Shown here piece after piece: positions 5,464-64,000 of a DNA stretch of 64,000 nt (position 1 is the stretch's first letter; each line of letters begins with the position of its first letter). The translations under genes were made by a program, and so were the position numbers. The notes below the pieces were generated by a model. It was not told the origin of the DNA. It did no database searches and worked only from the letters and a program-made list of their open reading frames with translations. Location of the stretch: assembly GCA_025999215.1 (NCBI GenBank), contig AP024679.1, positions 433,082 through 497,081 of the forward strand, in the 5' to 3' direction. This DNA is from Candidatus Dojkabacteria bacterium. Its GTDB lineage: Bacteria > Patescibacteriota > Dojkabacteria > J137.

Positions 5464-7301
5464 TAAATTATTCGTTTAAAAAATTTATCTATATCTTCTT
5501 TCGTTAGTTTGTAGTAAGTTGGTCGTCCATGTGGGCAATTTTTGGGGTATTTAAGGCTAAACAAATCGTTAATGAGCTTATTCATTTCGTCTATAGATAA
5601 TTTTTGTCCAGCTCTAATTGATCCGTGGCATGCTGTTTTTGCCCAAACTACATACTGTTCTTGTGTTAATTTTACACTAGTTTCAAACTCGTAACTACTA
5701 AATTTTGAATCAAGATCATCTGATTCTTCGTTTATTATCTCATCAAAGAATTCGTTTAAATTTATATTTTCTAAGTCTTCAGGGATTTCCATAATTTGTA
5801 AGGATTTTTGTCCAAATCTTTCAAATTTAAATCCTATCTGAATTAAATCATTTTCAATCTTTTTAATATTATCTTTACCGCTAGTAGTTAACTCGACAAT
5901 TGCGGGAATTAATAGAGGTTTTGATTTAGGTTTTTGAATTTTTCGTAGCAATTTTTCAAAAATGATTTTTTCGTGAGCTGCATGCTGATCAACTATAATT
6001 AAGTTTGAATTTTGTTCAAACAGTATGTATGTTCCAAAAATTTGCATAGGGTTTTTGTTCCATGAAAAGGAAATCTCAACTTCATTTTTGCTACTATTAA
6101 TTCCTTCATCTGATAATAATTGCTGAGTAAATTCAAGTGCTTTTTTGACTTCATAATTTTTGTTTCTTTGGCTTCCGATATTAAATTTAATTTTATTACT
6201 CTGCTCTGTTTTTTGTAAGGGTAAGTAATGCCTTGGTGGATTAGTAGTTTTTAAATCTGGTTCATTTGAAAAGTTATTTTCTTCTCCTAAAAAATCTTTG
6301 AGTAATTCTTGCTTGGACTCTTTCTCAAGTGTTTTTTTGACGCTCAGAAAAACAGACTTGAAAATGGAACCTGGATCATCAAAACGAACTTCAAGCTTTC
6401 GTGGGTGCACATTAACATCAACTTGATTTGAATCAAGTGTTAAAAACAAAATATATTGTGGCTTTAAATCTTTATGCAAGAAACCTGAGTATGCTTTTTG
6501 GATTGCTGATGAAATAGTTTTGTTAGTTACAAATCTTTTGTTGATAAAAATATATTGAACTGGATTTGTTTTTTTTCCAAGTTTTGAATTACCCAAAAAA
6601 CCATTTAATTTGATTGAATTACTGTGAGCAGTTAAGTTATATGAGTTTTCTAAAAATTCTCTACCTAAAATATCTTTTATTCTGTTCTCAATTGAAGTTT
6701 TTTCTAGATTATAAAGTTGTTTATTATTGTGGTAAAGCTCAAAATGTATTTCAGGATTTGCAAGAGATGCATGAATGAAAACTTGGATAATGTGTCTAAG
6801 TTCAGTTTGATTAGATTTTAGAAATTTTTTTCTTGCAGGAACTGTAGCAAATAAATTAAAAACTTGAATTCTTGTGCCGTTATTGTAACCTTCTGGAGAA
6901 GCTTCTGAGATGGTTGTTGGGGTTACCACCACCGCTTTTGGGTTACTATCGGGTGTTTTAGATTGTAAAATAATCTTTTCAGCAACTGAACGAATGCTAG
7001 CCATTGCTTCACCTCTAAAACCAAATGAATTAATTTTAAGTAGGTCAGAAGATTTTTTAATTTTAGAAGTTGCGTGTTGTTCAAACACTAAATCAATATC
7101 ATCACTCTCTATTCCTATTCCATCATCAATAATTTCAATCAAATCTAGCCCATAGTTTTCAATATAAACTTTAATATGAGTTGCATTGGCATCAATGCTA
7201 TTTTCTAAAATTTCCTTAACTACGGACGCTGGTCTTTCAACAACTTCACCGGCAGCAATAAGGTTTATTACATGTGGAGGTAGTTTGTTAATTTTTCCCA
7301 T
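5463..7301 (-). CDS. mutL: DNA mismatch repair protein MutL (endonuclease-type)
   Basis: N-terminal GHKL ATPase (LIAAGEVVERPASVVKEILENSIDA). The C-terminal domain carries DQHAAHEKIIFE (DQHAxxExxxxE) and CPHGRP motifs. Confidence 0.95.
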   Translation of the reverse strand: MGKINKLPPHVINLIAAGEVVERPASVVKEILENSIDANATHIKVYIENYGLDLIEIIDDGIGIESDDIDLVFEQHATSKIKKSSDLLKINSFGFRGEAMASIRSVAEKIILQSKTPDSNPKAVVVTPTTISEASPEGYNNGTRIQVFNLFATVPARKKFLKSNQTELRHIIQVFIHASLANPEIHFELYHNNKQLYNLEKTSIENRIKDILGREFLENSYNLTAHSNSIKLNGFLGNSKLGKKTNPVQYIFINKRFVTNKTISSAIQKAYSGFLHKDLKPQYILFLTLDSNQVDVNVHPRKLEVRFDDPGSIFKSVFLSVKKTLEKESKQELLKDFLGEENNFSNEPDLKTTNPPRHYLPLQKTEQSNKIKFNIGSQRNKNYEVKKALEFTQQLLSDEGINSSKNEVEISFSWNKNPMQIFGTYILFEQNSNLIIVDQHAAHEKIIFEKLLRKIQKPKSKPLLIPAIVELTTSGKDNIKKIENDLIQIGFKFERFGQKSLQIMEIPEDLENINLNEFFDEIINEESDDLDSKFSSYEFETSVKLTQEQYVVWAKTACHGSIRAGQKLSIDEMNKLINDLFSLKYPKNCPHGRPTYYKLTKEDIDKFFKRII

Positions 7302-9707: not shown

Positions 9708-9912
9708 TGATTAAATTTAAAATATTTTAATAATTATACCTTAAAATTAAAAATTACTCTAAAATTTCGAAAGGGGTAGTTAGATAATAACGTTAAAGTA
9801 TTTAGTATTCTAAAATTAAGAAAACCATTTTGCAGTTTTGGCTTTCTATGAGGATAACCAGGCCAGCAGCAAGGTCTATTTGCGCTTGTTGATTTTTTTT
9901 CTAAAATCAATA
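9672..9912. repeat. Direct repeat copy 1 (murA 5' end + promoter region + 3' remnant of a ydeI-like gene)
   Basis: The 146-bp core 9681-9826 matches 12179-12324 with about five substitutions counted by eye. More diverged homology continues to about 9912. The offset to copy 2 is 2498 bp in the same orientation. Confidence 0.85.
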
Positions 9913-10088
9913 AAAGATACAAAAATACACTCATCTTGTTTGGATGATTTTCACTTCCATGTAAGAGGTTTTATAAATATAGTTTAAATTATCTTTTTTC
10001 TGTATACTTTCCAGATTGTATTGTTCAGTAGATAGTATTTCAAACTTAAATTTCCATAATTGTCATTTTCTAACTTCTGTCAATAAGT

Positions 10089-12113
10089 TTAATCAGGAAC
10101 TTTTTGTAGTAAAAATTCTCTACAGTAAATCCTGGGTGGTTTAGACCAATCTATTTCACCATCAGGTTTGCGCTCATGTAAAATAAAACATCCATATCCA
10201 TATTGCCTTAACCCTATTCTACTGATCACGATCACATTATTTTTTAATTTTAATAGTTCTTTAACATATTTGTGATGCTTACGGGTTGCGTACATATTTT
10301 CATATATTCCATACTTTATACCAAAGTTACATGTGTACACACTAACATGTTTGCCATCCTCACATGCTTTGACATTTAGAATGGGTTCAACTGGTACATA
10401 CTTGAATCCTGCCCTTTTCCAATTATCTACTGCTTGATATACTCTTAACCAAGAAATAAATTCTTCATTTGATATGACTCTTCTATTACTTTTGTTGTCT
10501 AGCTCTTCAGTAATAATTGGGGGCTTTTTCTCTGCTTTTGATATTTCTTTTATTTCTGATTTTTCAAGGTTTTCTATTAGTTTTAATACATCTTTTTCGA
10601 TTGGTTTTCTATTTTTTTCTGGCAGATACTCAAAATTCCAAGCAAACCCAGGCGCAGCTTCTTTTGGTGCCATATCAATAAGTAGTCTAGCTACCTGTAA
10701 TTGATTCCCTTCATGTAAAGATGGGAGTCTAAAAGCGACCTCGTAAGCGGTTCCTTTTGGGTTTACACCCATAAGTAACTTAATGACTGCTAATTGATTT
10801 TTTTCTGACAAGTCCCGAAGTTGCCAAGCCACATTGCGAAGAAATTCGTCATTAATTGCTTTGGGAGCTTTTTCTATAAGTGAAGTAATAATTTCTATTT
10901 GAGTATCTTCTGGTAAACATGCTAAATGGCCAGCGAGGTTCTCAGCAGACTCTTGAGGTGCTTTTTCAACAAGTAGTTTAGCAATATCTCCCCTAATATC
11001 TTCAGATATATCATCAATTTTGTCAGATAACGGGCCTGCCGTTGGATTTATATATTCATCCTTATGTAACATGTACAAAATTTCATTTTTGATTTCTTGG
11101 GGTAATTCTTCAAATTCGCAAATTTCCCGAGCAAGTTCAGGTGCCGCTTCTTTTGGTGCTATATCGAGCAGTAAATTAAAGATATGTATCATTTGCTTTT
11201 CAGAAATAAACTCGCCGACATAAAAAAGTTTTTTAGCAAGTTCAGGTGCAGCTTCTTTTGGTGCTTTCTCTAGAATTAATTTTAATATTTCCATTTGAGC
11301 TTTTTCTGGTAAATATATGGCCTGATTTGCAAGCCCTGGTGCAGCTTCTTTAGGAGCTTTTTCTATAAGCTTTTTTGCGAAGTCTGCTCTAACTTCTTCT
11401 GGAAGGTCATTAATACCCCAGGCAAGTTTAGGTGCAGCTTCTTTTGGTGCTATATCGAGAAGCTTGTTTGCAAAGTCTACTCTTGTTTCTTTTGGAAGAT
11501 AAGAAACACTCCAGGCAATTTCAGGTACCGCTTTTTTGAGGGCTACATCAAACAGTAAATTAACAATTTGTTTTCTATTTTCGTATGGAAAAGATTCTAT
11601 GGAGCTAGCGATTACTGGAGCCGCTTCTTTGGGGGCATTCTCTAGGAACCAAGGTAATGCTTCTCTTTTAACCTCTGATGGGAGGTACTTAAAATTTTCA
11701 TATTCAGCTATTGCAGAAGTCACTTTTTTTAAATTTTTCTCCTTTATATGTTTTAAGAGCATTTTACAGATTTTTGTAAAAACTGCTGGTTCAAGAAGGC
11801 GATACAAATCTGAAATAAAGTTAGCAAGTTTAACCCCAGCTTCCTCTGGAGCGATATCTAAAATCTCTTGGGTTTTTTCGAAATAATCTCCTTGTTGACT
11901 ACATAGTGATAACATCGCATCAGTTATTTTAAAGTTTATTGGATCATTTTCGATAATGTTCTGGTATTGCCTTTCTAAATTTTCAACTATTTTTTGAAAC
12001 TCATCCTGGGACCATTTAGGTGCACCTGGCAAATGATACATTTCATAGTTTGCTATCATGTTGCGTGCCGTTTCACTTAAACTTGAATTAATTGAGGAAG
12101 TATTTTGTGACAT
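10089..12113 (-). CDS. 674-aa tandem-repeat (alpha-solenoid/HEAT-like) protein with unassigned C-terminal domain
   Basis: About a dozen units of roughly 31-36 aa of the form L(I/L)(E/D)xAPKEAAPxLAxxxxxLPEExxxxxxxxL. The only gene lying between the two direct repeats. Confidence 0.7.
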   Translation of the reverse strand: MSQNTSSINSSLSETARNMIANYEMYHLPGAPKWSQDEFQKIVENLERQYQNIIENDPINFKITDAMLSLCSQQGDYFEKTQEILDIAPEEAGVKLANFISDLYRLLEPAVFTKICKMLLKHIKEKNLKKVTSAIAEYENFKYLPSEVKREALPWFLENAPKEAAPVIASSIESFPYENRKQIVNLLFDVALKKAVPEIAWSVSYLPKETRVDFANKLLDIAPKEAAPKLAWGINDLPEEVRADFAKKLIEKAPKEAAPGLANQAIYLPEKAQMEILKLILEKAPKEAAPELAKKLFYVGEFISEKQMIHIFNLLLDIAPKEAAPELAREICEFEELPQEIKNEILYMLHKDEYINPTAGPLSDKIDDISEDIRGDIAKLLVEKAPQESAENLAGHLACLPEDTQIEIITSLIEKAPKAINDEFLRNVAWQLRDLSEKNQLAVIKLLMGVNPKGTAYEVAFRLPSLHEGNQLQVARLLIDMAPKEAAPGFAWNFEYLPEKNRKPIEKDVLKLIENLEKSEIKEISKAEKKPPIITEELDNKSNRRVISNEEFISWLRVYQAVDNWKRAGFKYVPVEPILNVKACEDGKHVSVYTCNFGIKYGIYENMYATRKHHKYVKELLKLKNNVIVISRIGLRQYGYGCFILHERKPDGEIDWSKPPRIYCREFLLQKVPD
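10640..11860 (-). repeat. In-frame coding tandem repeats (about 93-105 bp period) inside the 674-aa gene
   Basis: The recurrent DNA motif ggtgc(a/c)gcttcttttggtgc (reverse complement of APKEAAP codons) occurs near 10655, 11145, 11240, 11335 and 11430, with degenerate copies elsewhere. Confidence 0.8.
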
Positions 12114-12165
12114 ATTTTGATAAAGATAAAATAAAAATTTTGGTTATTCTACAACATACTCAATG

Positions 12166-12408
12166 CATCTAACTCTACGCCTCCTTTAATTTTGTATACA
12201 GCAATTGATTAAATTTAAAATATTTTAATAATTATACCTTAAAATTTAAAATTACTCTAAAATTTTGAAAGGGGTAGTTAGATAATAACGTTAAAGTATT
12301 TAGTATTCTAAAATTAAGAAAACCTTTTTTTCATTTTGGATTTCTGTGAGAACAACTAGGCCAGCAATAAGATGTTTTTGCACCTGTAGATATTTCTTTT
12401 TCTAAAAG
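12166..12408. repeat. Direct repeat copy 2 (dead murA 5' remnant + promoter copy + ydeI-like 3' end)
   Basis: Contains ATT GCT GTA TAC AAA ATT AAA GGA GGC GTA GAG, versus murA ATG GCT GTA TAT AAA ATT CAA GGA GGC ATA GAA. The upstream block is the same as in copy 1. Confidence 0.85.
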
Positions 12409-12591
12409 GTTTAAACGTTTATTTCTAGTAGTTCCTTTTTAGCAGCGCTTAACCAACATATCCATTCATTGCGAGCTAATTGTGTGAGTTTACCCCAGAC
12501 ATCATTTTAAATAGTATTTTTTGAGCATATTATCAAGATCAAGCGGCACTGCATGAAAATAGTTTTGTATACTTTTATAATTTTTATTCAT
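12331..12591 (-). pseudogene. Small YdeI/OmpD-associated-like gene with two frame disruptions
   Basis: Three frame segments: MNKNYKSIQNYFHAVPLDLDNMLKKYYLK* / NDVWGKLTQLARNEWICWLSAAKKE.. / TTRNKRLNLLEKEISTGAKTSYCWPSCSHRNPK*. The ARNEWI.W...AKK.ETR.KR and CCWP-type tail recall the YdeI C-terminal domain (from memory). Confidence 0.5.
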
Positions 12592-12708
12592 TATTTTTTA
12601 ATTAGGGAAGTTCTAATAATTTAAGAAGCGGTTTTTATTTTTTGGAAAAATACAATTACCTGAAAAGATATCTAAAAAAAGCAAATAAAAAAAACTAATT
12701 TTTAATCT

Positions 12709-12784
12709 TGGTGCCGAGGGGCGGACTCGAACCGCCGACACCACGATTTTCAGTCGTGTGCTCTACCAACTGAGCTACCTCAGC
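12709..12784 (-). tRNA. tRNA-Phe (anticodon GAA), CCA encoded
   Basis: The reverse complement reads GCTGAGG TA GCTCAGTTGGTAGAGC A CACGA CTGAAAA TCGTG GTGTC GGCGGTTCGAGTCCGCC CCTCGGC A CCA (76 nt). Confidence 0.95.
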
Positions 12785-12917
12785 ACTACGCTTGATTATA
12801 CACCGTTTTTTTCAACTTTGCGAATTTTTTTTTGTTTGTATTAAAAATTGTTTAGAATTATAGTAATTTTTTTTAAAGTGTTGTACAATTAATTAGTTTA
12901 CATTTTAATTGAAATTT

Positions 12918-13739
12918 ATGGAAGAATCAAAAACTACTTCAAACCAAGATATGAAGACTGAAAAAGTTAAATCAAATGGAAAAAGTAAGGTCTGGTTGAT
13001 TGCAGGTTTGTTATTTGTGATTTTTTTATGTTGTTGTTTGTGTGTGGGAGTTTTGGGTTATATGTTGTTTCAATCTGAAGATTTTAAAGAGGGATATTGT
13101 GAATCACTAGAAGAGGATGATGCATTGGATAATGATTTGTTAGGTTTGTGTGATGATTGGGAACCATCTTACGAAAAAGAAGATACCAAGGTTAGTTCAA
13201 ATGACAGCGATAAAAAAGCTGACGTTGTAGACAACAATACAGACACTAAAAAAGATGAATCTAACGACAAGAAGCAAAATAATGATAGTGCTTATGTTAT
13301 TTATGATGGTTATTACTTTTCATTCGAATATCCAAGATATTGGAAACAAAGCACATCTTCTACAGATTGGTCAACAGTTGAGTTTACATCTGAAGAAGGA
13401 GTTGTAATTAGTTTAAAATCAATTTATGATAATGAGTATTCAAAGAATTTGTCAGGTTGTAGTGAATATGAAGAGTCAATTTTTAGTGGTTTGACTAGTG
13501 TGTATGATAATGTTGAGTCTGAATCTGTTTTATTTACAACTACGGAGAATGGATATGCCGCTTGTTATTTAAAAGGTTATCTTGTTGATGGACCTATTAC
13601 TACAGTTTTAGAGCAATATTTAGTATTTGATCCTTTGATTGATACTTTTGCTTTAGAATTTGGAATTAAATACGATTCTAGAGATTCTGGCATGGGTAGT
13701 TACTTGCAACATGCTGTTGATACATTAACGTTTGAATAA
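12918..13739 (+). CDS. Hypothetical membrane-anchored protein (N-terminal TM, acidic linker, C-terminal globular domain)
   Basis: Intact ORF. An ATG at 12918 is preferred over the TTG at 12909. TM segment VWLIAGLLFVIFLCCCLCVGVLGYMLF. No family recognised. Confidence 0.6.
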   Translation: MEESKTTSNQDMKTEKVKSNGKSKVWLIAGLLFVIFLCCCLCVGVLGYMLFQSEDFKEGYCESLEEDDALDNDLLGLCDDWEPSYEKEDTKVSSNDSDKKADVVDNNTDTKKDESNDKKQNNDSAYVIYDGYYFSFEYPRYWKQSTSSTDWSTVEFTSEEGVVISLKSIYDNEYSKNLSGCSEYEESIFSGLTSVYDNVESESVLFTTTENGYAACYLKGYLVDGPITTVLEQYLVFDPLIDTFALEFGIKYDSRDSGMGSYLQHAVDTLTFE

Positions 13740-13818
13740 ATTTTAAAAAGCAAGAAATATAACTGAACCTAACATATTGATTTAATTTAAAAGTGTTGTT
13801 ACAATTTGTTGTTTGCTT

Positions 13819-14019: not shown

Positions 14020-14682
14020 GTGAGTAATGAAAAAATTAAACAAAAGGCAAAAAAGGTTAATGCGTTGTTAAAAAAAGAATACCCTATAGTTAAAACTCCT
14101 TTGCACCACAAAAATGCCTGGGAACTTTTAATTGCAGTTATATTGTCAGCTCAAACTTTAGATGAAACGGTAAACAAAGTTACTCCAAGGCTTTTTAAGT
14201 TATACAATTCATGTTATGAATTAGCTGGGGCTAATTTGGCTGAAGTAGAAGAAGTTATAAAAGGCGTAAATTATTATAAAACCAAAGCCAAAAATATTAT
14301 CAAGACATCTCAAAAGCTAGTAGAAAATTTTGATGGTAAAGTACCAAATAAAATTGAAGAATTAACAACTCTTCCTGGTGTTGGTAGAAAAACTGCCAAT
14401 GTTATAATAAACGAGTGGTTTTGTAGGCATGATCAGAAAGTTTTACCTCAGGGATTTGTTGTTGATACTCATGTAGCTAGGGTTTCAAAGCGTTTAGGTT
14501 TTACTAAGCATTCTGATCCTACTTAAAATTGAGCAAGATTTAATGAATTTGTTTGATCAGATCTGATTGGCCTGAGTTGAGTTTGAGATTGATTTTTCAC
14601 GGGAGATATAGGTGTACCGCTCGTCAACATTTATGTTGTGAGCATGATAGATTGGAGTAAACTTTGTCAATGTTTATGTTAA
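14020..14682 (+). pseudogene. nth: Endonuclease III (Nth), frame-disrupted in its C-terminal third
   Basis: The HhH-GPD core is intact (LIAVILSAQTLDETVNKVT, LPGVGRKTANVI, VDTHVARVSKRLG) up to the stop at 14524-14526. The homologous sequence continues as KIEQDLMNLFDQ and then SDWPELSLRLIFHGRYRCTARQHLC in two other frames. The 4Fe-4S Cys spacing is not intact. Confidence 0.8.
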
Positions 14683-14686
14683 CATT

Positions 14687-15963
14687 ATGGAATTTAATTT
14701 AGTTTCTGAGTATAAACCTGCTGGTGATCAACCACGAGCGATTGATACGCTTTCTAATGGTTTGCTTGCTGGGAATCAAGCACCAAACGCTTGGTTGGTG
14801 CGACCGGAACTGGTAAAACTTTTACAATGGCAAATATCATACAAAATCTTGGGAAACCTGCTTTAATTCTTTCTCACAACAAAACTTTAGCTGCTCAATT
14901 GTTTGCTGAATTTAAAAAATTTTTTCCTTACAATGCTGTTGAGTATTTTGTGAGTTACTACGATTATTATCAGCCTGAGGCTTATGTTCCCTCAAGAGAT
15001 TTGTATATTGAGAAAGATGCCGATATAAACGACACAATTGAGCGGTACAGGTCTTCAGCTAGCCAGTCGCTTTTGACAAGAAAGGATGTGATTGTAATTT
15101 CAACCGTTAGTTGTATCTATGGGCTAGGGAATCCTGCAGATTATTTAGAATTAAGTTTTGAATTTAATGTTGGGGAAAGTTATAAACGCGATAATATTTT
15201 AGCGCGACTAACAGATATGCAGTATGAAAGAAACCAACTTGATTTCATGCCTGGGAGTTTTAGAGCCATTGGTGAGATTATTGATATTTATTTAACAAAT
15301 GCAAATGATGAAGCTGTAAGGTTAGAGTTTTTTGGTGATGAATTGGAATCTATAAAGATAATTAATCCTCTAACAGGCGAGTTTGTAAAAAATTTAAATT
15401 CAGTTATTATTTTTCCTGCCAAACACTATGTAAGTCCACATCATAAACTAATGGAAACGATTGAAACAATAAGAGAAGATATGAAAAAAGAAGTTCAGCA
15501 ATTTTTGGATAAAGGAAAGGTGGTGGAAGCAACGAGACTTAAGCAAAGGGTTGAATATGATTTGGAAATGATTGCTGAAACAGGTTTTGTAAAAGGCATT
15601 GAAAATTATTCTAGATACATTGACAGAAGACCACCCGGAAGTGCGCCATCATGTTTAATTGATTATTTTCCTCATGATTACATTATGTTTATTGATGAAT
15701 CACATATAACTGTTCCGCAAATTGGAGGAATGTACAATGGCGATCGCGCACGGAAACAGAGCTTGGTAGATTATGGTTTTAGGATGAAAGCAGCGCTAGA
15801 TAATCGACCTTTGAAATTTGAAGAATTTGAACAAAAATTAAACCAAGTTATTTACACCACGGCAACGCCAAGGGATTATGAAATTCAGAAAAGCATGAAT
15901 GCAACAGAAGAAATTAGGGAAAAAAGCCCTCAAATATTCAGTGGAAAAATGTTAGAATATTAG
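14687..15963 (+). pseudogene. uvrB: UvrB N-terminal half (about 425 codons) with two single-nt frame disruptions next to the Walker A motif
   Basis: MEFNLVSEYKPAGDQPRAIDTLSNGLLAGNQ (frame a), HQTL (frame c) and VGATGTGKTFTMANII (frame b). The extra bases are about 14780 and 14793. It ends ...TATPRDYEIQKS plus a 22-aa tail and TAG. The rest of UvrB is at 63780. Confidence 0.85.
15953..15958 (+). promoter_or_regulatory. Extended -10 (TGTTAGAAT) 6 nt upstream of the DUF368 ATG
   Basis: aaaTGtTAGAATattagaATG. Confidence 0.35.
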
Positions 15964-15964
15964 A

Positions 15965-16910
15965 ATGAAAATCAAGATTAGAAATATTTCACAAAAGGAA
16001 TGGTGATGGGTCTTGCTGAGGTTATCCCTGGAGTGAGTGGGTCAACCATGGCTTTGGTGATGGGTATTTATGATGATTTCATCAATCTACTCTACTCTTT
16101 TTCAAAGTTGGCGCAAAATTGTGTTGAGTTTTTGTTTCGAAAGAAAAGATTTTTTTGATCTTAAACAAGAGTTGACTGAACTATCTAGAATGGGGTTTTG
16201 CTATACCTTTGTTTTTCGGCATGATTGTGTCAATTTTATCTTTTGCCAATATTTTAAACTATTTCATTGATAAATCACCGGGTTACGTGCTTGCTTTTTT
16301 CTTTGGATTGGTGGTCGCATCGGTGTCAATTCCACTTCAGAGAGTTGGTAAGACCCAACATTTTGAAAGTTCTTTTGTTCTTGCTTCTCTCTTGCTTTTT
16401 TCTATTTTTTGCTTGGAGTTGATCCTATTGAGTTAAACGGTAAGCCAAATTTAGTTTATGTATTTTGTTGGGGGTATGCTTGCCATTTGCGCAATGAGTT
16501 TGCCTGGAATTAGCGGTTCTTTTATTTTGCTATTGTTGGGTTTGTATGAATACATTATTTCTATAATTAAAGATTTGTCTCATTTTAAGTTTAACTTCAG
16601 TGATTTTACTAGGTTGGTTGTTCTTTCTTTTGGTGTGGTGGCTGGATTTGTATTGTTTGTGAGAATACTAAAATGGTTGCTTTCAAAATACGAGGGCGAA
16701 TTGATGGCTTTTCTTGCAGGCTTGATGTTGGCATCGCTAAGAATTTTGTGGCCATTTATCGATAATTCACAGGAAGTTTCGAGAGTTTGGATGCTTATCC
16801 CAAGGTGATGTTAGAGTTAAGTAACACTGAACACCTTGTACACGGTTGCAATTATTGTAGCAAGTGCTGTAGCCGTCTTAGTAATCAAAAAGATTTCTGA
16901 TAAAATTTAA
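15965..16910 (+). pseudogene. DUF368-family membrane protein, fragmented by at least six frame disruptions
   Basis: GLAEVIPGVSGSTMALVMGIYD and AMSLPGISGSFILLLLGLYEY are the duplicated DUF368 signature. The homologous sequence hops between frames near 16000, 16140, 16196, 16400, 16460 and 16805. The C-terminal helix TLYTVAIIVASAVAVLVIKKISDKI ends at 16910. Confidence 0.7.
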
Positions 16911-16914
16911 GAGG

Positions 16915-18834
16915 TCACACCAAGGAAGCTTTGAGTCGCCTCAGGTTTGAGCCTATGTTTTCTTGTTTTAAAATTTTGAACTTTTTATTATTCTCTCCCA
17001 AAACTCCTGTTGTTTCAACATGCGGTCCTCCGCAAAACTCTTTTGAGAAACGCCTCATCTAAACTATTACCTATAAAATAAATGGTTACTTTGTCGGGAT
17101 ATTTTTGTCCAAACTCCATTTCTGCACCAATTTTTTGTGCTTCGCCTGAGAGGCATTTCTACTCTCTTCACTGGTAAATTTTCTGTGATCTTTTGATTGA
17201 CAATATCTTCAATTTTTTTGATTTCCTCTTCTGTAATTTTTTTTGAATAGTTAAAATCTATTCTTAATCTTTCAGAAGTTATGTTGCTACCTCTCTGGTG
17301 AATATTTTCGTCTAACACAAGCTGTAATGCTCTCAAAAGCAAGTGGTGAGCTGTGTGAAGCTTGGTTGTTTCGTGCGAGTGATCTGCCAAGCCTCCAGTA
17401 AATTTTTTTTGAGCGCCGGCACGAGATTGTTCTTTATGTTGTTCTAGCAACGTTTTAAAACCAACTATGTCTACTATAAATCCTATTTCTTTTGATAATT
17501 CTTGTGTCATTTCTACTGGAAATCCATAAGTTTCATAAAGATGGAAAGCTTCTTCACCTTTTAAGAAATTTCTATGAGGATTTTCGGATTTTTTGATATC
17601 AGTAACGATTTTGTAAAATTGCTTAATACCATTGTCTAGAGTTTTTCTAAATTTTATTTCTTCTTTATCTATTTCATCAATTATAAACATCTCCTTTTCT
17701 TTAAGATGAGGATAAGCATCTTTCATTTTTTCAATTACTAGGCTTGCCAAATCCTTGGTGAAATTTTTTTCTATTCCAAGAATTTTTGCATGTCTTATCA
17801 TCCTTCTGATTAAGCGCCTCAAAATATACCCTTGATCTTTGTTAGATGGCGCAATTCCATCGGCAAGAATAAAAGTTGATGCTCTTGCATGATCAGCTAT
17901 AATCCTGAATGCTTTCGTATATTTACTTCTGTTCTTCGTTGTGATCGTATTTGTGGCCTGATATATTTTCTATTGCGTTGATGTAGTCAATAAATAAATC
18001 AGTTTCGTAAACTGAGCGCTTGTTTTGAACTGTAGCGACAATTCTGTCTAGCCCTCCTCCATAATCAATGTTTTTTTGCTCCATAGGCTTCCATTTTCCA
18101 TCCTCAAATCTGTATTCCATAAAGACACTGTTTCCAATTTCTAAGTATCTTCCTGAATCATCATTAATGTGCAGTTTTTCTCCAGTATCATTTAATACTG
18201 TTTGCATATCATAAAAAATTTCTGAGCACGGTCCACCCAATTCTCCATTAACCTCGGGCCCTCTCTGCCACCAATTGTCTTTTTTACCATAAGGAAATAT
18301 TCTAAATTGCCAATTTTGACTTGATTCACCCTGTTGAGGAACATTTGTAATATCTTCACTAAATTTCGCTTCTATTCCATATTTTTTAAATGCCTTTATC
18401 CATGCGTCAATGGCTTCATCATCGCGAGGTATATTATCATCTCCTCCCCAGACGCTAGCAAAAATTCTTTGGGGATCAAGTCCGAACTTTTCTACATAAA
18501 GCTCCATTTTCCAAAGTATTTGTTCAGTTTTTGAAAAAGCGCCCAAAGACCAGTTACCGATCATTTCAAAAAAAGTTAAGTGATTGTAGTCGCCAACATC
18601 TTCAATATCATTTGTTCTTAGACATCTTTGTACATTACACAATCTTTTTCCCAAAGGATGAGGCTGTCCAGCTAGATATGGCACAAGTGGAAACATGCCT
18701 GAATTTACAAAAAGTAAAGTTGGATCATTATTTGGGACAAGGGATACATTCGGGATAATTTTTGCATTTCTTGGAGAACTTGTCCAAAATTTCAAAAATT
18801 CATTTCTTATTTCATCGGATGTTTTCATGAACAA
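16915..18834 (-). pseudogene. alaS: Alanyl-tRNA synthetase with three single-nt frame disruptions
   Basis: N-terminal catalytic part (FLKFWTSSPRNAKIIPNVSLVPNNDPTLLFVNSGM, FFEMIGNWSLG), middle part (AFRIIADHARASTFILADGIAPSNKDQGYILRRLIRR, HTAHHLL) and C-terminal part (GAEMEFGQKYPDKV, FSKEFCGGPHVETTG). The parts lie in successive +1 frames, with breaks near 17925, 17152 and 17050. Confidence 0.85.
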
Positions 18835-22096: not shown

Positions 22097-24664
22097 ATGA
22101 TACTACAAAAAATTTTTTTTACAATGAAATATTTAAAGTTAACAAAAAAAATATTCACTACAGTTTTGGTTTTTGGCATTTTTGGATTGGTTTTGCCTTC
22201 TATTTGGAGTGTAAATGCTATAGTAGATGTGCCTTTAGAGACTTACTCGAATACGCAGACAGAGGTAATTAAACCTACACCATCAATGAATGGTTTGTTT
22301 TGTTTTGTTCCTGCTGAAGTTAATCAAGCACTCTATGGATGTCCTATAGTTACAAGTTGTGGTTTCTTTAGTGATTTAATGTCTGTTGGTGAGACTGTTC
22401 TTTCTGGTACTACCTTTTTTAACACAGCATGTGATGCAACTAATGGAGATTCACAATTTAATCCTAATTCAGGAATTGGTTTAAATCACGTGGCATTAAA
22501 TGGTATTGATACTTTGTTAAACTTAAGACCTGTAAGTGGTGTAGATTATATTAACCAGAATGTTTATGCATTATCAAAGTTGGGTAACGTGAGCGCACAA
22601 GATGGTGGTAGGGTGCTTCCATATTATCCTGGACTTGGTTATCAGTTACAGGCACCAATGCAAGCTTTTTGGGGCTGGTCCGTTAATATAGTTTATGGTT
22701 TTTTGATAGTTTTGATAATTGTTGTAGCACTTGCAATAAGTTTCAGGCAAAGATTAGGCGGTAGCGCTGTTGTTACTTTACAAAATTCTATCCCAAATAT
22801 TGCTCTTGCTATGATTTTAGTACCACTCAGTTTTGCAATTACTGGTTTGTTTATTGATGCTATAACTGTCGGTTCGAATGTTGTTCATGGTTTTCTATTG
22901 GGACCTGGATCACCAGGTAGGGTTGTTATAGAAGGCGATGAAAACGATCGGCCCTTTAGTAGGGATCTATATCCAGATGATCCTGATTTACAGTTGTTAC
23001 AAGGAAGTATTGGAAACCCATTGGAATTATCTATTGAGGGTGGTACGGTTGGAGATGCTGCTTTTGATATTATTATTGGAGATAAAGGCACCACGAGGGA
23101 TGCAATTGATAAAGGTTTGTTAATTTTTTCTCCACTTTTTCCATTTGCAGCTATAACTATACTACTACAAGGTATATCTCAAATTCCAGTTGTTGGTGAA
23201 AGAACTACTTCTAGTATTTCTGAGTTGTTTGGTTTTGGCAGTGAGATTCCGCAGTTTGCAGCTTCGTGGTGGATAGGCCAATTTTTCACTTTATTTATGA
23301 ATATAATATTCTTTTTCACAGGTTTACGAATTTTATGGTTATTATTAAAAAAGTTTTTTGTTTTGATGATATCGCCTGTATTTTCTCCTTTTGTGTTTGC
23401 AACTATAGCAATTCCTGGAGTAGGTATGAAAAATGTTTATTCTTTTTTGAAATCACTAGGTGCTGTTTCAATATTTTATATTGTTGCTTATTCTATGATT
23501 TTGTTGGCAAATATTATTGGTAATATAAAATTTGTACAAAGCATAGAGCAACAATTTCAAGTTTCAGGTTATGTACCTCCATTACTAGGATTTAGTGGCA
23601 AATTTATTGAATTATCGGAAAAAATAATTAGTAGTGAAGGTACTGAAACTGGAGTCAATGCTTTAGTTTACTTGGTTATGTCTAGTGTTGCGGTTGTCAT
23701 CTATTTATCTATTCCAAAAACTCTAAGAGATATTGATAGAAGATTGGGAACAGATAGATCTATGTTAATGCCTATTTTGCAAGATACTATTCAGAGCGCA
23801 AGAGATTCTCTTGGAATTGGTAGAGAGTTAGGGTTATATGGTGCCAACTTAGCTGCGAGCGCCTACAATAGGTTTGCAGGTGTGGAAGCAGGGCAACCTG
23901 GAAGTGCGCAATACAGGTTTAGAAGATTTTTTTCTAACTCTTTGAATAGGTTAGATTCTCAATCAAATGATCCAAATAGGAGTTTTTTGGGTAGAGTTGC
24001 ATCTAGGTATGATAGGTTTGTAACAGGTCAAGTTGCTAGAGCTTTAGGTGTAACACCGCAAGGTTTTGATGAGCAAGGAAGGAGGTTGCCTGCTTCATTT
24101 AAGGTTCAATTTGTTCCAACTAAGTATGTAAATGAGTTTGGAATTATAACTTTTCCAAACTCATTCATTCAAGAAATATGTCAAGCAGCTACAGATGTTG
24201 GATCTAATAAATGGTCAATTGAGGGTTTTGTGATAATGAAGATAACTGCTGAAAATGCTGAGTTACCTTTTACATTTGATACAAATTCTGTTAGTATTCA
24301 AGAAGCAGTTAAAGCACCTGATGGTGCAACAGACATACCATCAGGTAAAACGGATACTCAAAGGTTGTATAAAGAGAAAGTAGATATATTTGGTGTGAGT
24401 AAAGCAACTAAAGGGGCTTTGTCCATTCAGCTGTCACCTAGATCTGCTCCTATGCCAACTGATGGTAAATCTGCAGGTATATTGTTTGATTTGGTTATAA
24501 ACGATGTAAGGAAATTGTTTGGATGGGATGGTCAAAAAATTGTAAAAGGGGACGCTATTATTTCAACTGTTTCCTCTGTCGTTATGTCGGACAAGATTTT
24601 CTTTGTTTTTAGGGATGGTGCTGCAGGACCAGTAAGGTTGCAATTGGGCGCAACACCTGATTAA
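22097..24664 (+). CDS. 855-aa polytopic membrane protein, possible VirB6/TrbL-like channel component (weak)
   Basis: Signal/TM segment, a Cys-containing ectodomain of about 180 aa, at least 6 TM helices, and an Arg-rich soluble C-terminal region of about 300 aa. The start may be the ATG at 22124 (MKYLKL). The VirB6-like idea rests on topology and context only. Confidence 0.55.
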   Translation: MILQKIFFTMKYLKLTKKIFTTVLVFGIFGLVLPSIWSVNAIVDVPLETYSNTQTEVIKPTPSMNGLFCFVPAEVNQALYGCPIVTSCGFFSDLMSVGETVLSGTTFFNTACDATNGDSQFNPNSGIGLNHVALNGIDTLLNLRPVSGVDYINQNVYALSKLGNVSAQDGGRVLPYYPGLGYQLQAPMQAFWGWSVNIVYGFLIVLIIVVALAISFRQRLGGSAVVTLQNSIPNIALAMILVPLSFAITGLFIDAITVGSNVVHGFLLGPGSPGRVVIEGDENDRPFSRDLYPDDPDLQLLQGSIGNPLELSIEGGTVGDAAFDIIIGDKGTTRDAIDKGLLIFSPLFPFAAITILLQGISQIPVVGERTTSSISELFGFGSEIPQFAASWWIGQFFTLFMNIIFFFTGLRILWLLLKKFFVLMISPVFSPFVFATIAIPGVGMKNVYSFLKSLGAVSIFYIVAYSMILLANIIGNIKFVQSIEQQFQVSGYVPPLLGFSGKFIELSEKIISSEGTETGVNALVYLVMSSVAVVIYLSIPKTLRDIDRRLGTDRSMLMPILQDTIQSARDSLGIGRELGLYGANLAASAYNRFAGVEAGQPGSAQYRFRRFFSNSLNRLDSQSNDPNRSFLGRVASRYDRFVTGQVARALGVTPQGFDEQGRRLPASFKVQFVPTKYVNEFGIITFPNSFIQEICQAATDVGSNKWSIEGFVIMKITAENAELPFTFDTNSVSIQEAVKAPDGATDIPSGKTDTQRLYKEKVDIFGVSKATKGALSIQLSPRSAPMPTDGKSAGILFDLVINDVRKLFGWDGQKIVKGDAIISTVSSVVMSDKIFFVFRDGAAGPVRLQLGATPD

Positions 24665-32270: not shown

Positions 32271-32282
32271 TGTTATAGTATT

Positions 32283-36871: not shown

Positions 36872-38383
36872 TTAAAATAAATTTTTGCTTCTTAATTGGG
36901 TATGATATTTTTTAGCAAATCTGTGTGCTTCGTCTCTTATTCTTTGAATTAGGTATAAACTTTCAGAATTTTTAGGTAGAATTATTCTTTGGAATGTAGA
37001 ATCAATTTTTTTGGGATCTTGGTTGAATTGTTTTTTAATTTTAAATATTTCTTCATTTTTCTTAGCTAAACCAATTATTGGTATTTCATTATCAAGTTTA
37101 AAAATTTTTAAAACTTCATAAACTGCAGAAATTTGACCTTTTCCTCCATCAATTATTATTAAATCAGGTTTTTGAGCAAAGCTTTCATCAAATTTCCACT
37201 TTTTCATTTTGCTTGCAATTTCAGGGTTTATTTGGCTTAGTTCCACATCACTTTCAATTAATCTTTTAAATCTTCGCGCTAATACTTCTTGCAGCATTAA
37301 AAAATCATCAGGATTTTGTTTAGAACGAATCCTAAATTTTCTATAAAATTGTGGAGCTGCCTCTCCATCAATTTGCACTACCATTGAGCCCGTAGCGTTA
37401 GTTCCTTGCAGATTGCTAATATCGTAGCATTCAATTCTAAAATTAGGGTGTTTTTTTAATTTGTTAGCTGGAAAGTTGAGTTTTGAGATTAAATCATCAA
37501 TTGCATTTTTTCTAAGATTTTGTAGATGGTCTTCAACCATTATATCGTCAAAAGTCTCTTCAACGACTGTATTTTTTGTTGCATAATCAATGTCGTTTAT
37601 CATGTTTCTTATTTCTGCTGCTTTTTCAAATTCTAAATTGCGAGCGTATGTTTTCATTTGTTTTTCTAAATCATTCAAAATTTTATCTTTTTCTCCTTTG
37701 AAAAACCTTAAAATATGTTTGTATCTTTGAGTATATTCTTCTTTGGTTTCTAATCCAGCGCAAGCACCTTTACATAATCCAATGTGGTAATAAAAACAAG
37801 GTTTTTTCATATTTGTGATCACCTTTTTTGATTTGTCATCTAGTTGATAAGCAATTTTTCTGTGAGAGCAAAAAGGGAAAATTTTTCTTAGTTTTCTTAA
37901 AACTCTTTTTACTGGATAAGCATTGGGATATGGACCAAAGTAGATAGCGCCATCGGTTTCTTTTTTGCGAGTAATCGTAATTTTTGGAAAATCTTGATAT
38001 GTAGAGTTTGCGGTTGGAATTGGTTGATTCTTTTTTCGTATTTTTTCAAACCTCACAAATATGTAGTTTTTATCATCTTTCATCAGCGTGTTATATTTTG
38101 GCCTGTATTTTTTAATTAGGTTTGTTTCAAGAATAAGTGCCTCAATTTCAGTATCTACTGTGTAATAATTGATTTTTACAGCCTCATTTAACATCTGTTT
38201 AATTTTGTCTGAAAGTTTGTCATAGTTATTAAAATAACTTTGAATTCTATTTTTAAGGATTTTAGCTTTGCCTACATACAAAACTGTATCTTTTTGATCT
38301 AAATACAAATAAACTCCTGGTAGCTTGGGAGCATTTTTGACTATTTCTTGAAAATCTTTTGATTTGGTATTCAATATATCCAT
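36872..38383 (-). CDS. uvrC: Excinuclease ABC subunit C, short form lacking the C-terminal (HhH)2 domain
   Basis: GIY-YIG domain (LPGVYLYLDQKDTVLYVGKAKILKNRIQSYF), a UVR domain, and the endonuclease domain IIDGGKGQ...RDEAHRFA. The protein ends about 15 aa after RDEAHRFA. The start is taken at MDILN (38383) rather than the ORF-track start. Confidence 0.9.
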   Translation of the reverse strand: MDILNTKSKDFQEIVKNAPKLPGVYLYLDQKDTVLYVGKAKILKNRIQSYFNNYDKLSDKIKQMLNEAVKINYYTVDTEIEALILETNLIKKYRPKYNTLMKDDKNYIFVRFEKIRKKNQPIPTANSTYQDFPKITITRKKETDGAIYFGPYPNAYPVKRVLRKLRKIFPFCSHRKIAYQLDDKSKKVITNMKKPCFYYHIGLCKGACAGLETKEEYTQRYKHILRFFKGEKDKILNDLEKQMKTYARNLEFEKAAEIRNMINDIDYATKNTVVEETFDDIMVEDHLQNLRKNAIDDLISKLNFPANKLKKHPNFRIECYDISNLQGTNATGSMVVQIDGEAAPQFYRKFRIRSKQNPDDFLMLQEVLARRFKRLIESDVELSQINPEIASKMKKWKFDESFAQKPDLIIIDGGKGQISAVYEVLKIFKLDNEIPIIGLAKKNEEIFKIKKQFNQDPKKIDSTFQRIILPKNSESLYLIQRIRDEAHRFAKKYHTQLRSKNLF

Positions 38384-38389
38384 AATTAA

Positions 38390-38395
38390 ATGATA
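38390..38395 (-). promoter_or_regulatory. Extended -10 (TGCTATCAT) 6 nt upstream of the uvrC ATG
   Basis: The minus strand reads TGcTATCATttaattATG. Confidence 0.35.
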
Positions 38396-38490
38396 GCATG
38401 GCGCAATTTTTGAACCAAAAGGCAAATTTAATCAATCTGTAAATAATTTTATTTTTGTGCTAGACTTGTGAATAGTAATTTTAAACTTAC

Positions 38491-60468: not shown

Positions 60469-60693
60469 TGTGATTTTGAGATATGGTTCATAATATAATA
60501 GTTTTACGACTTAAATTTATTTTGATATTGATAACTTAAGTAAAATCTTTTATAGATCCACAAGTTTTTTGGTTTATAGGTGTAATAAAAATTTTAAGTA
60601 TAAGTTAAATTTAAAGTGGTTTTAAAAAGTTGGGAAGTATGTTATAATGTAATCGGTTTGAATTAGCTCAAGCAACGCTAAAGGAGAATAGCC

Positions 60694-61314: not shown

Positions 61315-61320
61315 TATACA

Positions 61321-61358
61321 TGATGAATCCTATGTTTATTTTATCATAGGATTCATCA
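61321..61358 (+). terminator. 14-bp-stem hairpin after the 206-aa gene
   Basis: tgatgaatcctatg (61321-61334), a 10-nt loop, cataggattcatca (61345-61358). Confidence 0.45.
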
Positions 61359-61468
61359 CAAAGTTTTCCTTGCAGAAAAATAGTTTTGTTGATTAAATTA
61401 AGATTTTTGCTTAATTTTTTTTAAACAAAAAATTATCAATGGTCAAAAACAAGATGTGATATTTACAA

Positions 61469-61484
61469 TGTTTGTGCACAAACA
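61469..61484. promoter_or_regulatory. Perfect 16-bp palindrome upstream of an extended -10 box
   Basis: TGTTTGTGCACAAACA at 61469-61484. TGGTATAAT at 61504-61512. AAGGAG at 61538-61543. ATG at 61548. Confidence 0.35.
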
Positions 61485-61547
61485 ATTATCATTGATGATT
61501 TTATGGTATAATTAAAAGGATTGCGAAAGTACAGACAAGGAGCAATT

Positions 61548-61772: not shown

Positions 61773-61780
61773 AAATCATA

Positions 61781-61802
61781 AGCCCCTTCGGGGGCTTTTT
61801 TT
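61781..61802 (+). terminator. Rho-independent terminator
   Basis: AGCCCC TTCG GGGGCT followed by TTTTTT. Confidence 0.75.
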
Positions 61803-61933
61803 CTTTTTTTAATCTTTCATTTATAAAATTTTTTAAATTAAATTTAAAGCTAATTTTTTAATTTTTATTAATTTGTTTTAACTTAAAATGTTTTTATTAA
61901 TTTCCTAATGATTTTATTGTATAATGAATTTAT

Positions 61934-62007: not shown

Positions 62008-62008
62008 T

Positions 62009-63683: not shown

Positions 63684-63767
63684 TTTTTAAAATTAATAAA
63701 TATTTACTTATTATAGTTTTTTTTGATTAAAATGTAAAACTTAAAAATTCTAAAAAAATTTAAATGT

Positions 63768-63773
63768 TATAAT
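63768..63773 (+). promoter_or_regulatory. Extended -10 (TGTTATAAT) 6 nt upstream of the uvrB C-half ATG
   Basis: aaTGtTATAATcaaaatATG. Confidence 0.45.
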
Positions 63774-63779: not shown

Positions 63780-64000
63780 ATGAGTTTAATTCTTCCAAAA
63801 AATTACAAAGGTGTTGTCAAACAAGTGATTAGACCAACTGGGCTTTTGGATCCATTGGTTGAGGTCAGGCCAACCATGCCTGAAACTTTTGACAAACTTA
63901 AATTATCTTTACGAGAAAATGGATATGAAGACATGCCCACCTACAAAAAAACAACATGGTTAAAACCACAAATTCCTGATTTAATCGAAGAAATTGAAAA
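63780..64000 (+). CDS. uvrB: UvrB C-terminal half, separate ORF (3' end outside window)
   Basis: MSLILPKNYKGVVKQVIRPTGLLDPLVEVRP...QIPDLIEEIEK. The IRPTGLLDP block follows directly after the point where the N-half (14687-15963) stops. Confidence 0.85.
   Translation, partial: MSLILPKNYKGVVKQVIRPTGLLDPLVEVRPTMPETFDKLKLSLRENGYEDMPTYKKTTWLKPQIPDLIEEIE

Follow-up and report, generated by a model that had tools for sequence, protein, structure and literature searches.

The helicase UvrB has the central role in damage verification during bacterial excision repair and, to our knowledge, it has always been studied as one chain. Naturally split protein genes, among them those of reverse gyrase and alaS, are known from the reduced genome of Nanoarchaeum equitans. 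The canonical single-chain UvrB is represented by the structures from B. caldotenax (1D9Z, 1T5L and 2FDC), B. subtilis (2NMV) and T. thermophilus (1C4O). Additionally, a 411-residue N-terminal chain of UvrB, a laboratory construct, has been crystallised by itself (PDB 7egt).

The locus described here belongs to a tiny uncultured bacterium, the MAG Candidatus Dojkabacteria KatS3mg085 (contig of 862,240 bp), of which a stretch of 64,000 nucleotides, hereafter the window, was analyzed. All domains and motifs of the canonical UvrB are present and collinear, but they are distributed over two polypeptides, with an expanded linker whose remnants are found on both pieces, and domain 3 carries a 28-aa insertion after VRPT. 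As in N. equitans, a probably symbiotic organism with a small genome encodes a housekeeping enzyme in two unlinked ORFs, the cut being at a domain boundary, and non-covalent reassembly of the halves is presumed. The two cases differ in the domain of life and in the protein; here the cut separates the RecA-like halves of one ATPase site, the uvrB split is common to a large clade, and some relatives still have the gene in the intact or the adjacent-split state. The literature searched, which included the founding Dojkabacteria paper, contained no report of a split uvrB. The relevant features of the window are as follows.

14020..14682, + strand: nth, encoding endonuclease III, which immediately precedes the N-half and is broken here by at least two frameshifts
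14687..15963, + strand: uvrB N-half, with UvrB domains 1a, 1b and 2, the beta-hairpin and motifs I-III
14780..14790, + strand: site of the frameshift just before Walker A, with one surplus g at 14780 and one surplus c/g at about 14790
15895..15960, + strand: 22-aa tail of the N-half, MNATEEIREKSPQIFSGKMLEY, a remnant of the inter-domain linker kept in the closest relatives
36872..38425, - strand: uvrC, 517 aa, with GIY-YIG, UVR motif and RNase H-like endonuclease domain
63765..63773, + strand: extended -10-like element (TGtTATAAT) that precedes the ATG of the C-half by 6 nt and is conserved in the closest relative
63780..64000, + strand: start of the uvrB C-half, which runs past the window end (full gene 295 aa, KatS3mg085_478, P0121)
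63780..63812, + strand: leader of the C-half, MSLILPKNYKG, whose LPxxYxG motif is a conserved linker remnant

Without the two extra bases, the N-half would comprise 424 aa, compared to 378 aa in the GenBank call (KatS3mg085_434, P0001). It contains the aromatic beta-hairpin (YYDYYQPEAY), the UvrA-interaction domain 2 and helicase motifs I-III, with Walker A GATGTGKT, DESH and TATP, the helicase motifs being encoded at 14797-15870; PF17757 (UvrB_inter) and PF27431 are on record for P0001 and its relatives. As originally predicted, its conserved part ends with ...VIYTTATPRDYEIQKS, after which come 22 aa and the TAG stop codon (15961-15963), and an ORF opening with MSLILPKNYKGVVKQVIRPTGLLDP starts at 63780 on the same strand. 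The measured distance between the stop of the former and the start of the latter (63780-15963) is 47,817 nt, in agreement with the 47.8 kb noted before. The full C-half, an intact ORF of 295 aa obtained from an independent contig via the neighbouring ssb protein, contains domain 3 (motifs IV-VI), the UvrB C domain and the UVR motif, with TTLTK, GINLLREGLDLPEV and GRAAR (PF00271, PF12344 and PF02151).

The two halves are complementary and non-overlapping, both on the UvrB profile and on the solved protein, so that no conserved block is lost or doubled, as had been proposed. The UvrB family corresponds to TIGR00631 and to the Pfam set PF04851, PF17757, PF27431, PF00271, PF12344 and PF02151. On TIGR00631, the N-half covers profile positions 1-405 (scored on the 77%-identical relative P0002), and the C-half covers positions 426-657 and, in addition, the RPTGLLDP block. 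In the alignment to B. caldotenax UvrB, the N-half matches residues 5-411, and the C-half matches residues 430-453 and 453-680 of 3uwx_B (428-655 in the 658-residue chains). The cut is positioned between the first and second RecA-like domains of UvrB, at the 1a/3 boundary, where the original prediction had placed the break between the domain 1/2 part and domain 3. Neither half by itself reaches the curated equivalog cut-off of TIGR00631 (750.1 bits), the scores being 635.5 bits for the N-half relative and 347.5 bits for the C-half; their rounded sum (635 + 347) is close to the 956.5 bits of the intact relative P0112. Owing to these scores, the NCBI names of the halves are "DEAD/DEAH box helicase family protein", "UvrB/UvrC motif-containing protein" and "hypothetical protein".

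Both ends created by the cut carry remnants of the inter-domain linker. The tail of the N-half had been described as unrelated to UvrB, which does not hold: the closest relatives share the pattern ...F.G..L.Y before the stop codon, and the first part of the tail matches the linker helix of intact relatives. The LPKNYKG motif of the C-half leader is present in 114 of the best 120 C-half homologues and also in some intact relatives. In the AlphaFold model of the intact relative P0112 (pTM 0.81), the LPxxYxG segment is predicted to be ordered (pLDDT about 92), and residues 413-429 form a low-confidence gap between a confident helix and the ordered LPKDYTG. The ends of the N-halves map to P0112 positions about 405-414, and the C-half starts at the LP of LPKNY, at about position 429. 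In intact relatives this linker is variable (about 15-50 aa) with low pLDDT, and it is located exactly where the split forms break.

In order to determine how widespread the split is, we considered the best 120 matches of each half among relatives from JGI, ENA, NCBI and Logan. N-only proteins accounted for 109 of the 120 N-half homologues (378-441 aa, median 412), many of them on contigs of 100 kb-1.2 Mb, and the remaining 11 were intact (668-733 aa); all 120 C-half homologues were C-only (291-329 aa). Walker A is kept in 108 of the 109 N-only proteins, and the hairpin, DESH and motif III in all of them; among the C-only proteins, motif IV is kept in 118, and motifs V and VI in all 120. Both halves lie on one contig in each of the seven contigs (7/7) that could be paired between the two match lists. 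Both show dN of 0.13-0.25 with saturated dS and, wherever dS was estimable, a dN/dS of about 0.06-0.10. These dN/dS values resemble those of murA and the P-type ATPase. An intact uvrB from the 862,240-bp contig of KatS3mg085 was not among the best 120 matches of either half. The intact UvrB proteins of sister lineages (P0077, P0101, P0112 and others, 708-733 aa) are 62-66% identical to the N-half and share with the split forms the nth-uvrB order, the SKQSAxxVL helix, the (L)PxxYxG motif and the domain-3 insertion; they differ in that one continuous frame runs through the linker, whereas the split forms carry stop and start codons there. In other Patescibacteria, uvrB is intact with a short linker. 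A protein search with the 73 aa of the C-half that lie inside the window gave no matches, and in a genome-contig search this piece matched only distant intact uvrB genes, which were used as outgroups; a representative-library search with the C-half returned mostly fragmentary representatives.

Because two separate, well-conserved genes occur in more than 100 relatives, the fission of uvrB is real, inherited and lineage-wide, and neither faulty assembly nor a pseudogene accounts for it: in many genomes the ORFs are intact, end and begin at the same break and are under purifying selection. Thus, of the two possibilities raised in the original prediction, two separately encoded polypeptides are strongly supported. 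The rearrangement that was also considered did part the halves, but it is ancient and inherited.

Neighbor-joining bootstrap trees (200 replicates, 49 taxa) recovered the main split clade as monophyletic in 190/200 replicates for the N-half and in 130/200 for the C-half. In two NCBI assemblies the halves are adjacent, the N-half being followed by a 193-nt non-coding spacer and the C-half; this adjacent-split lineage was placed apart from the main split clade in the NJ trees, so that a single stepwise history is not established. The gene neighbourhoods point to the ancestral location. In unsplit relatives, nth is also found directly upstream of the intact uvrB, which marks it as the ancestral left flank, and in one intact relative hpf and mnmA are located 4-5 kb downstream of uvrB. 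On a 1.14-Mb contig of another genome, one half is found on the + strand near 805 kb and the other on the - strand near 1086 kb, 280 kb apart. We propose that the ancestor had one uvrB downstream of nth with an unusually long variable loop between the RecA-like domain 1a and domain 3, and that the reading frame was broken inside this loop, giving rise to an N-half that includes the UvrA-binding domain and a C-half with the UVR domain that binds UvrC. Later rearrangements would have parted the halves, by 47.8 kb on the same strand here and by 280 kb on opposite strands elsewhere, and nth and mnmA, the outer neighbours in the ancestor, probably stayed in place, nth before the N-half and mnmA after the C-half.

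The DUF368 gene, which had been placed 2 nt after the N-half stop, starts with an ATG at 15965, 1 nt after it. The TGtTATAAT element before the C-half, missed by a two-hexamer promoter scan, suggests that this half has its own promoter, and its distance from the ATG may indicate a leaderless mRNA. A 12-nt resemblance between the junctions (AAATGTTAGAAT / AAATGTTATAAT) was considered as an att-like core and rejected: it is out of frame, it is absent at the left junction of the relative, and at the right junction it is part of the conserved -10 element.

We consider it about 85% probable that uvrB in the Dojkabacteria lineage is a naturally fissioned gene in the full sense proposed here, i.e. 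that its origin, the working pair and the frameshifts as sequence errors (see below) hold jointly. The N-half would be cotranscribed with nth, and the C-half would be expressed from its own promoter in an operon with mnmA. The two proteins would associate non-covalently, rebuilding the ATP site between domains 1a and 3, and the halves, reassembled into one ATPase, would serve as the UvrB of the UvrABC system in nucleotide excision repair. Since the direct contact between the two RecA-like domains is usually modest in SF2 helicases, a stable linker-free association is not guaranteed. The uvrC gene, whose product is the partner of the C-terminal UVR domain of UvrB, sits between the two halves and passes TIGR00194 (349.7 bits, cut-off 285.45); uvrA was not found within the 64-kb window. 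A more elaborate reading, possible although doubtful, is that of an obligate two-subunit UvrB helicase, in which the ATP site would form only when the separately expressed halves meet, e.g. on UvrA-loaded damaged DNA, so that assembly would be a regulatory step of nucleotide excision repair; the expanded linker might be a fission hot spot at which independent breaks occurred at least twice, one giving rise to the main clade and the other to the adjacent-split lineage (GCA_015657875.1).

The N-half had been read as a single ORF from 14687 to 15963, and this part of the original observation did not stand, together with the unrelated tail and the DUF368 spacing, whereas the split itself did. The assembly has two ORFs, 14687-14866 and 14791-15963, and the frame changes near 14780-14791, ahead of Walker A. 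A DNA alignment with three relatives (L043, L046 and L051) placed the two extra bases, and removal of both yields GNQHQTLVGATGTGKT, the family consensus. A frame repair by one added A (GNQAPKRLVG) was also tried and is wrong according to this alignment; the N-half search query carried this approximate repair, with no effect on the search results. Taken literally, the assembly would describe a strain that lacks a functional N-half. The two extra bases are among at least 12 indels clustered in 4.9 kb (14.0-18.9 kb): at least two in nth, two in the uvrB N-half, at least five in DUF368 and three in alaS.

This cluster, together with the clean flanking genes (mutL, murB, murA and an ATPase are free of frameshifts), might be taken as a sign of decay in this strain, with the N-half, nth, DUF368 and alaS truly frameshifted and excision repair being lost, the split itself being ancestral. 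We regard such decay as improbable. The indels are not accompanied by a raised substitution divergence (71.3% DNA identity to a relative across 13.8-21.8 kb, cluster included, against 70.7% across 4.9-9.8 kb), every frame segment still encodes conserved protein, and a pair of genuine 1-nt insertions separated by 10 nt would be an unlikely mutational outcome. Furthermore, alaS is essential, and the window contains no second copy beyond a weak AlaX-like match. The MAG was assembled with metaFlye from PacBio HiFi reads of Q20 or better, and no polishing is mentioned in the methods passages covered. In an independent k-mer assembly, the 1,092-bp contig of the 273-aa neighbour stops at 13847, no independent copy of 14-19 kb is on record for P0001, the ATPase or the PduO-like protein, and proteins for 18.9-22.0 kb are likewise not on record from the independent assembly; both the break and the missing proteins are consistent with locally poor read support. 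The frameshift of the N-half, within this cluster, is most likely a HiFi consensus error.

There is also little chance that the halves act alone, the N-half for example as a UvrA-binding and DNA-binding module like the UvrB-homology module of Mfd, to which it is weakly similar, and the C-half as a UvrC-recruiting protein or another helicase-C protein. The genes are unlinked and under separate transcriptional control, and residues 10-410 of the N-half query align to residues 12-409 of the 7egt chain, whose same extent suggests that the N-half can fold alone; 7egt is a laboratory construct, whereas the N-half is a natural product with a separately encoded partner. On the other hand, motifs I-III in the N-half and IV-VI, including GRAAR, in the C-half are nearly invariant, which is only sensible if the composite ATP site is still in use, and the co-occurrence of both halves on every paired contig and the conserved linker remnants on both sides also argue against independent functions.

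An assembly or binning artefact, i.e. a misjoin at 15.96 kb or 63.78 kb, was likewise suggested originally and could be suspected in a metagenome-derived MAG whose N-half lies in a locally noisy region, but it is effectively refuted. The independent Logan contig L042, from the same run, is 100% identical to 60439-64000 and covers ssb, the intergenic region and the C-half start, i.e. the right junction. Moreover, the gene orders at the two junctions, nth-uvrBN-DUF368-alaS and SpoU-ssb-uvrBC-mnmA, recur in the closest relative, whose nth, DUF368 and alaS are intact, and the separate halves of the more than 100 relatives each have their own start and stop codons.

The genes between the halves include alaS, uvrC, ATP-dependent DNA ligase, class II RNR, nrdR, Mur ligase, TGT, UDG and ssb, as well as iPGM and DHH, which were assigned by synteny with L044. 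Restoration of an intact uvrB on demand, by excision of the 47.8 kb as in sigK/skin or the nifD element, by a split intein or by RNA trans-splicing, has next to no probability: the length of the interval is comparable to that of known intervening elements and the halves share a strand here, but the interval is housekeeping DNA with no integrase or recombinase among the 30 ORFs scanned, no repeats were found within either junction region (scanned separately) and no in-frame repeat is shared between them, another genome has the halves on opposite strands, and intein blocks are lacking (no Cys in the 22-aa tail and no HN[CST] in the 11-aa head), both linker remnants being homologous to the linker of intact proteins.

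TIGR00631 presumably belongs to the bac120 set of phylogenomic markers, in which case both the recovery of markers and the estimated completeness of Dojkabacteria genomes could be distorted by the split. Within this clade, uvrB is found intact, split with adjacent halves and split with dispersed halves, which represents a rare documented gene-fission series. A natural UvrB cut between its motor domains provides a system for testing the role of the covalent linker and of inter-domain closure, and for asking whether the assembly of an ATPase can be regulated.

The N-terminal part of uvrB (N-half; GenBank locus KatS3mg085_434) runs to ...VIYTTATPRDYEIQKS; another 22 residues then lead to a TAG stop codon at 15961-15963. 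An ORF beginning at 63780 on the same strand, 47,817 nt away (C-half; KatS3mg085_478), opens MSLILPKNYKGVVKQVIRPTGLLDP... and continues past the end of the window, whose G+C content is ~31%. The strings and coordinates on which the original prediction of a split uvrB had rested, with the C-half 47.8 kb downstream on the same strand, were thus reproduced by ORF listing and direct reading. The complete C-half was obtained from a 6,004-bp contig of an independent Logan assembly of run DRR290133, reached through the neighbouring ssb protein. It has 295 aa with Helicase_C, UvrB and UVR domains, and is followed by mnmA and then by a PCMT methyltransferase gene; ssb sits divergently upstream. As this contig is 100% identical, without gaps, to window positions 60439-64000, the C-half start with its divergent ssb is not an assembly join, and that alternative is ruled out there.

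The two halves are complementary. In alignments to solved UvrB structures, the N-half spans residues 5-411 of the B. caldotenax UvrB chain, and the C-half residues 430-453 and 453-680 of 3uwx_B (428-655 in the 658-residue chains). Similarly, an N-half covers positions 1-405 of the TIGR00631 profile and the C-half positions 426-657, with scores of 635.5 and 347.5 bits, respectively; an intact relative scores 956.5 bits, close to the sum of the two. No conserved block is missing, as originally proposed: the halves jointly hold every UvrB element, and uvrC is present in the same genome. Because each half scores below the TIGR00631 cut-off of 750.1 bits, the GenBank names are "hypothetical", "DEAD/DEAH box helicase family protein" and "UvrB/UvrC motif-containing protein". 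In UvrB, domains 1a and 3 form the ATP site between them; with the cut separating one RecA-like domain from the other, this site is shared out over two polypeptides. On every sequence criterion but single-polypeptide status, the split pair is UvrB.

Features of the C-half and of the 47.8-kb interval (window positions)
63879-63962: 28-residue domain-3 insertion after VRPT (C-half residues 34-61)
33499-35232: ATP-dependent (archaeal/eukaryotic-type) DNA ligase
36872-38425 (-): uvrC, passes TIGR00194
41130-44744: class II ribonucleotide reductase, 1,204 aa, TSCPD domain; nrdR adjoins
Inside the interval: DUF368 and alaS, both fragmented here
Inside the interval: P-type ATPase; cobalamin adenosyltransferase-like protein
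Inside the interval: membrane proteins of unknown kind; two T4SS-pilin-like paralogues
Inside the interval: MraY-like transferase, Mur ligase, UDG, TGT, SpoU, ssb
Inside the interval: iPGM and DHH protein, assigned only by synteny with L044, the C-half-side contig of the closest relative

The model of P0112, an intact UvrB of a sister lineage, shows the domain-3 insertion, defined relative to the solved structures, as partly helical. Some intact Patescibacteria UvrB (Shapirobacteria and others) also align through this stretch, in a shorter form, and the insertion is therefore older than the fission.

Scanning of 30 interval ORFs detected no integrase or recombinase, and separate scans of the two junction regions gave no internal repeats; an excisable element, a split intein and trans-splicing were set aside. 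The uvrC product, at just 517 aa, combines GIY-YIG, a UVR motif and an RNase H-like endonuclease domain; it had no match to the helix-hairpin-helix domain that UvrC usually carries at its C-terminus, although the TIGR00194 cut-off was passed. The barrel-domain match of the reductase falls in two stretches, which may reflect an insertion. An 855-aa multi-pass membrane protein without a Pfam match (22097-24664) and three paralogous proteins of ~400 aa (29887-33497), two of them with a C-terminal T4SS-pilin domain, may form a surface or pilus locus. Compared to the closest relative, ~4 kb of extra DNA lies between murA and nth (9752-13816), encoding a 674-aa protein with many "APKEAAP"-type repeats (10089-12113), a 276-aa protein rich in Ser and Asp (12909-13739) with a likely membrane span close to its N-terminus, and a tRNA-Val; a tRNA-Phe is common to both genomes.

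The original prediction posed an intact and an identically split uvrB as alternatives for the relatives, and both occur. Among the 120 best N-half homologues, 109 are N-only (378-441 aa, median 412), lacking Helicase_C and UvrB-C domains; many of these come from contigs between 100 kb and 1.2 Mb long. The remaining 11 are intact (668-733 aa). All of the 120 best C-half homologues are C-only (291-329 aa), and in these two sets seven contigs, matched by their lengths, carry both halves. Walker A is kept in 108 of the 109 N-only proteins, the exception being the truncated protein call of this MAG; the hairpin, DESH and motif III are each present in all 109, as are motif IV in 118, and motifs V and VI in all, of the 120 C-only proteins. 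For this genome against its closest relative, and for pairs of more distant members, dN was 0.13-0.25 and dS saturated; the pairs with an estimable dS, to which the window N-half and its closest relative do not belong, gave a dN/dS of ~0.06-0.10 for the halves, in line with murA (0.05) and the P-type ATPase (0.08). By these measures the uvrB halves are functional genes, not relics, and two separately encoded polypeptides, as first suggested, are the state that is conserved.

Intact relatives within the clade have an expanded linker of ~15-50 residues between domains 1a and 3, consisting of a conserved helix YELNLSKQSAxxVL, a variable middle and a conserved (L)PxxYxG directly before IVEQIIRPTG. 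The AlphaFold2 model of P0112 (mean pLDDT 82.8, pTM 0.81) is confident at helix 396-412 and around PKDYTG (431-440, pLDDT ~92); blocks 411-420 and 421-430 have mean pLDDT values of 59 and 61, with stretches below 50. N-only proteins stop at P0112 positions ~405-414 and C-only proteins begin at the LP of LPKNY, flanking this low-confidence stretch and so placing the fission in the variable, probably flexible linker middle. The 22-residue tail, described earlier as unrelated, is instead one conserved linker end, and the 11-aa leader of the C-half is the other. The six closest relatives have the long tail form (...F.G..L.Y*) in common; in most of the clade the N-half stops earlier, at ...SAKEVLG. 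At C-half position 14 (window 63819-63821), just before QIIRPTG, this sub-clade has Lys (VVKQVI) and the main split clade mostly Tyr (GIVYQII), as against Glu/Gln in the intact relatives and Glu in 3uwx_B, a solved B. caldotenax-type UvrB; the change is clade-specific and adjoins the new N-terminus.

A frameshift had been overlooked in reading 14687-15963 as one uninterrupted frame: in this assembly the region is divided between two ORFs that do not share a frame. Aligning its DNA with that of three relatives located two extra bases, at 14780 and ~14790; once they are removed, the sequence reads GNQHQTLVGATGTGKT, in agreement with the family consensus, and the resulting 424-aa protein resembles that of the closest relative. 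The two bases belong to a cluster of at least 12 indels within 4.9 kb (14020-18834; nth at least 2, uvrB-N 2, DUF368 at least 5, alaS 3), flanked by clean mutL, murB, murA and ATPase genes; all four broken genes are intact in the closest relative. Substitution divergence from the closest relative is not raised (71.3% DNA identity in the span including the indel block, versus 70.7% at 4.9-9.8 kb), conserved protein is still encoded in each frame segment, and alaS is an essential gene. The MAG was assembled with metaFlye 2.8.3 from PacBio HiFi reads (Q20 or better), and the methods passages of the source study mention no polishing (PMC9671151). The independent assembly is also fragmented at this block, with one contig stopping at 13847 and the neighbouring proteins without a record. 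On these grounds, the cluster is very probably a locally noisy HiFi/metaFlye consensus rather than decay of the N-half.

The closest relative (77% identity for the N-half and 83% for the C-half) has identical neighbourhoods, mutL-murB-murA-nth-uvrBN-DUF368-alaS-ATPase and SpoU-ssb-uvrBC-mnmA-PCMT-prfA-lepA. In a more distant member, the halves lie on opposite strands of a 1,140,724-bp contig, at ~805 kb and ~1,086 kb. In two intact relatives nth is directly upstream of uvrB, and in one of them hpf and mnmA lie 4-5 kb farther downstream; in split genomes the N-half has kept nth in front of it and the C-half has kept mnmA behind it, with hpf there as well in the 1.14-Mb genome. In the simplest reading, an ancestral nth-uvrB...hpf-mnmA locus would have broken inside uvrB, and both sides would then have drifted apart.

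An adjacent-split state was found in GCA_015657875.1 (contig L051, 8001-10344) and GCA_015657915.1 (contig L052), where a non-coding spacer of 193 nt separates a 419-aa N-half from a downstream 296-aa C-half opening MKNKLPKNYNGIV; this spacer contains an A+T-rich stretch resembling a promoter as well as a G+C-rich hairpin (GTGGCGTAGTCGCCAC). In other Patescibacteria (Shapiro-, Woese-, Woyke- and Saccharibacteria) uvrB is intact and has the usual short linker. In neighbour-joining distance trees that use other Patescibacteria as the root, the main split clade, with separate halves, is monophyletic (190/200 bootstraps for the N-half, 130/200 for the C-half), and the adjacent-split lineage joins it in 0/200, grouping with the intact proteins P0116 and P0118 in the N-half tree (155/200) and being basal in the C-half tree. 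With this lineage standing apart, the same linker loop may have broken twice, and these simple distance trees favour two independent breaks over one break plus re-fusions.

The N-half would be co-transcribed with nth, the intergenic gaps being of a few nucleotides, and the C-half would be driven from its own promoter. An extended -10-like TGtTATAAT (63765-63773), kept in the closest relative (L044, ~5986-5994), ends 6-7 nt before the C-half ATG, suggesting an mRNA with no leader or almost none. On the opposite strand, ssb has a strong promoter-like site (11/12 matches) at 63738-63710. The C-half and mnmA overlap by 4 nt in this genome; in the closest relative the overlap is 11 nt. The halves would associate through the native 1a/3 interface, possibly assisted by the retained linker ends, ATP and DNA, and the associated complex would act as UvrB.

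Full-text searches of openly accessible literature gave no report of a split uvrB, and neither did the paper that founded Dojkabacteria; the split resembles in kind those of housekeeping genes in Nanoarchaeum-type reduced genomes. For annotation, the point of interest is that both halves fail the curated UvrB model, and users of MAG KatS3mg085 should treat nth, uvrB-N, DUF368 and alaS as mis-called. For gene-fission research, three states (intact, adjacent-split and dispersed) are preserved, and for repair biochemistry the split uvrB would represent a natural two-piece helicase.
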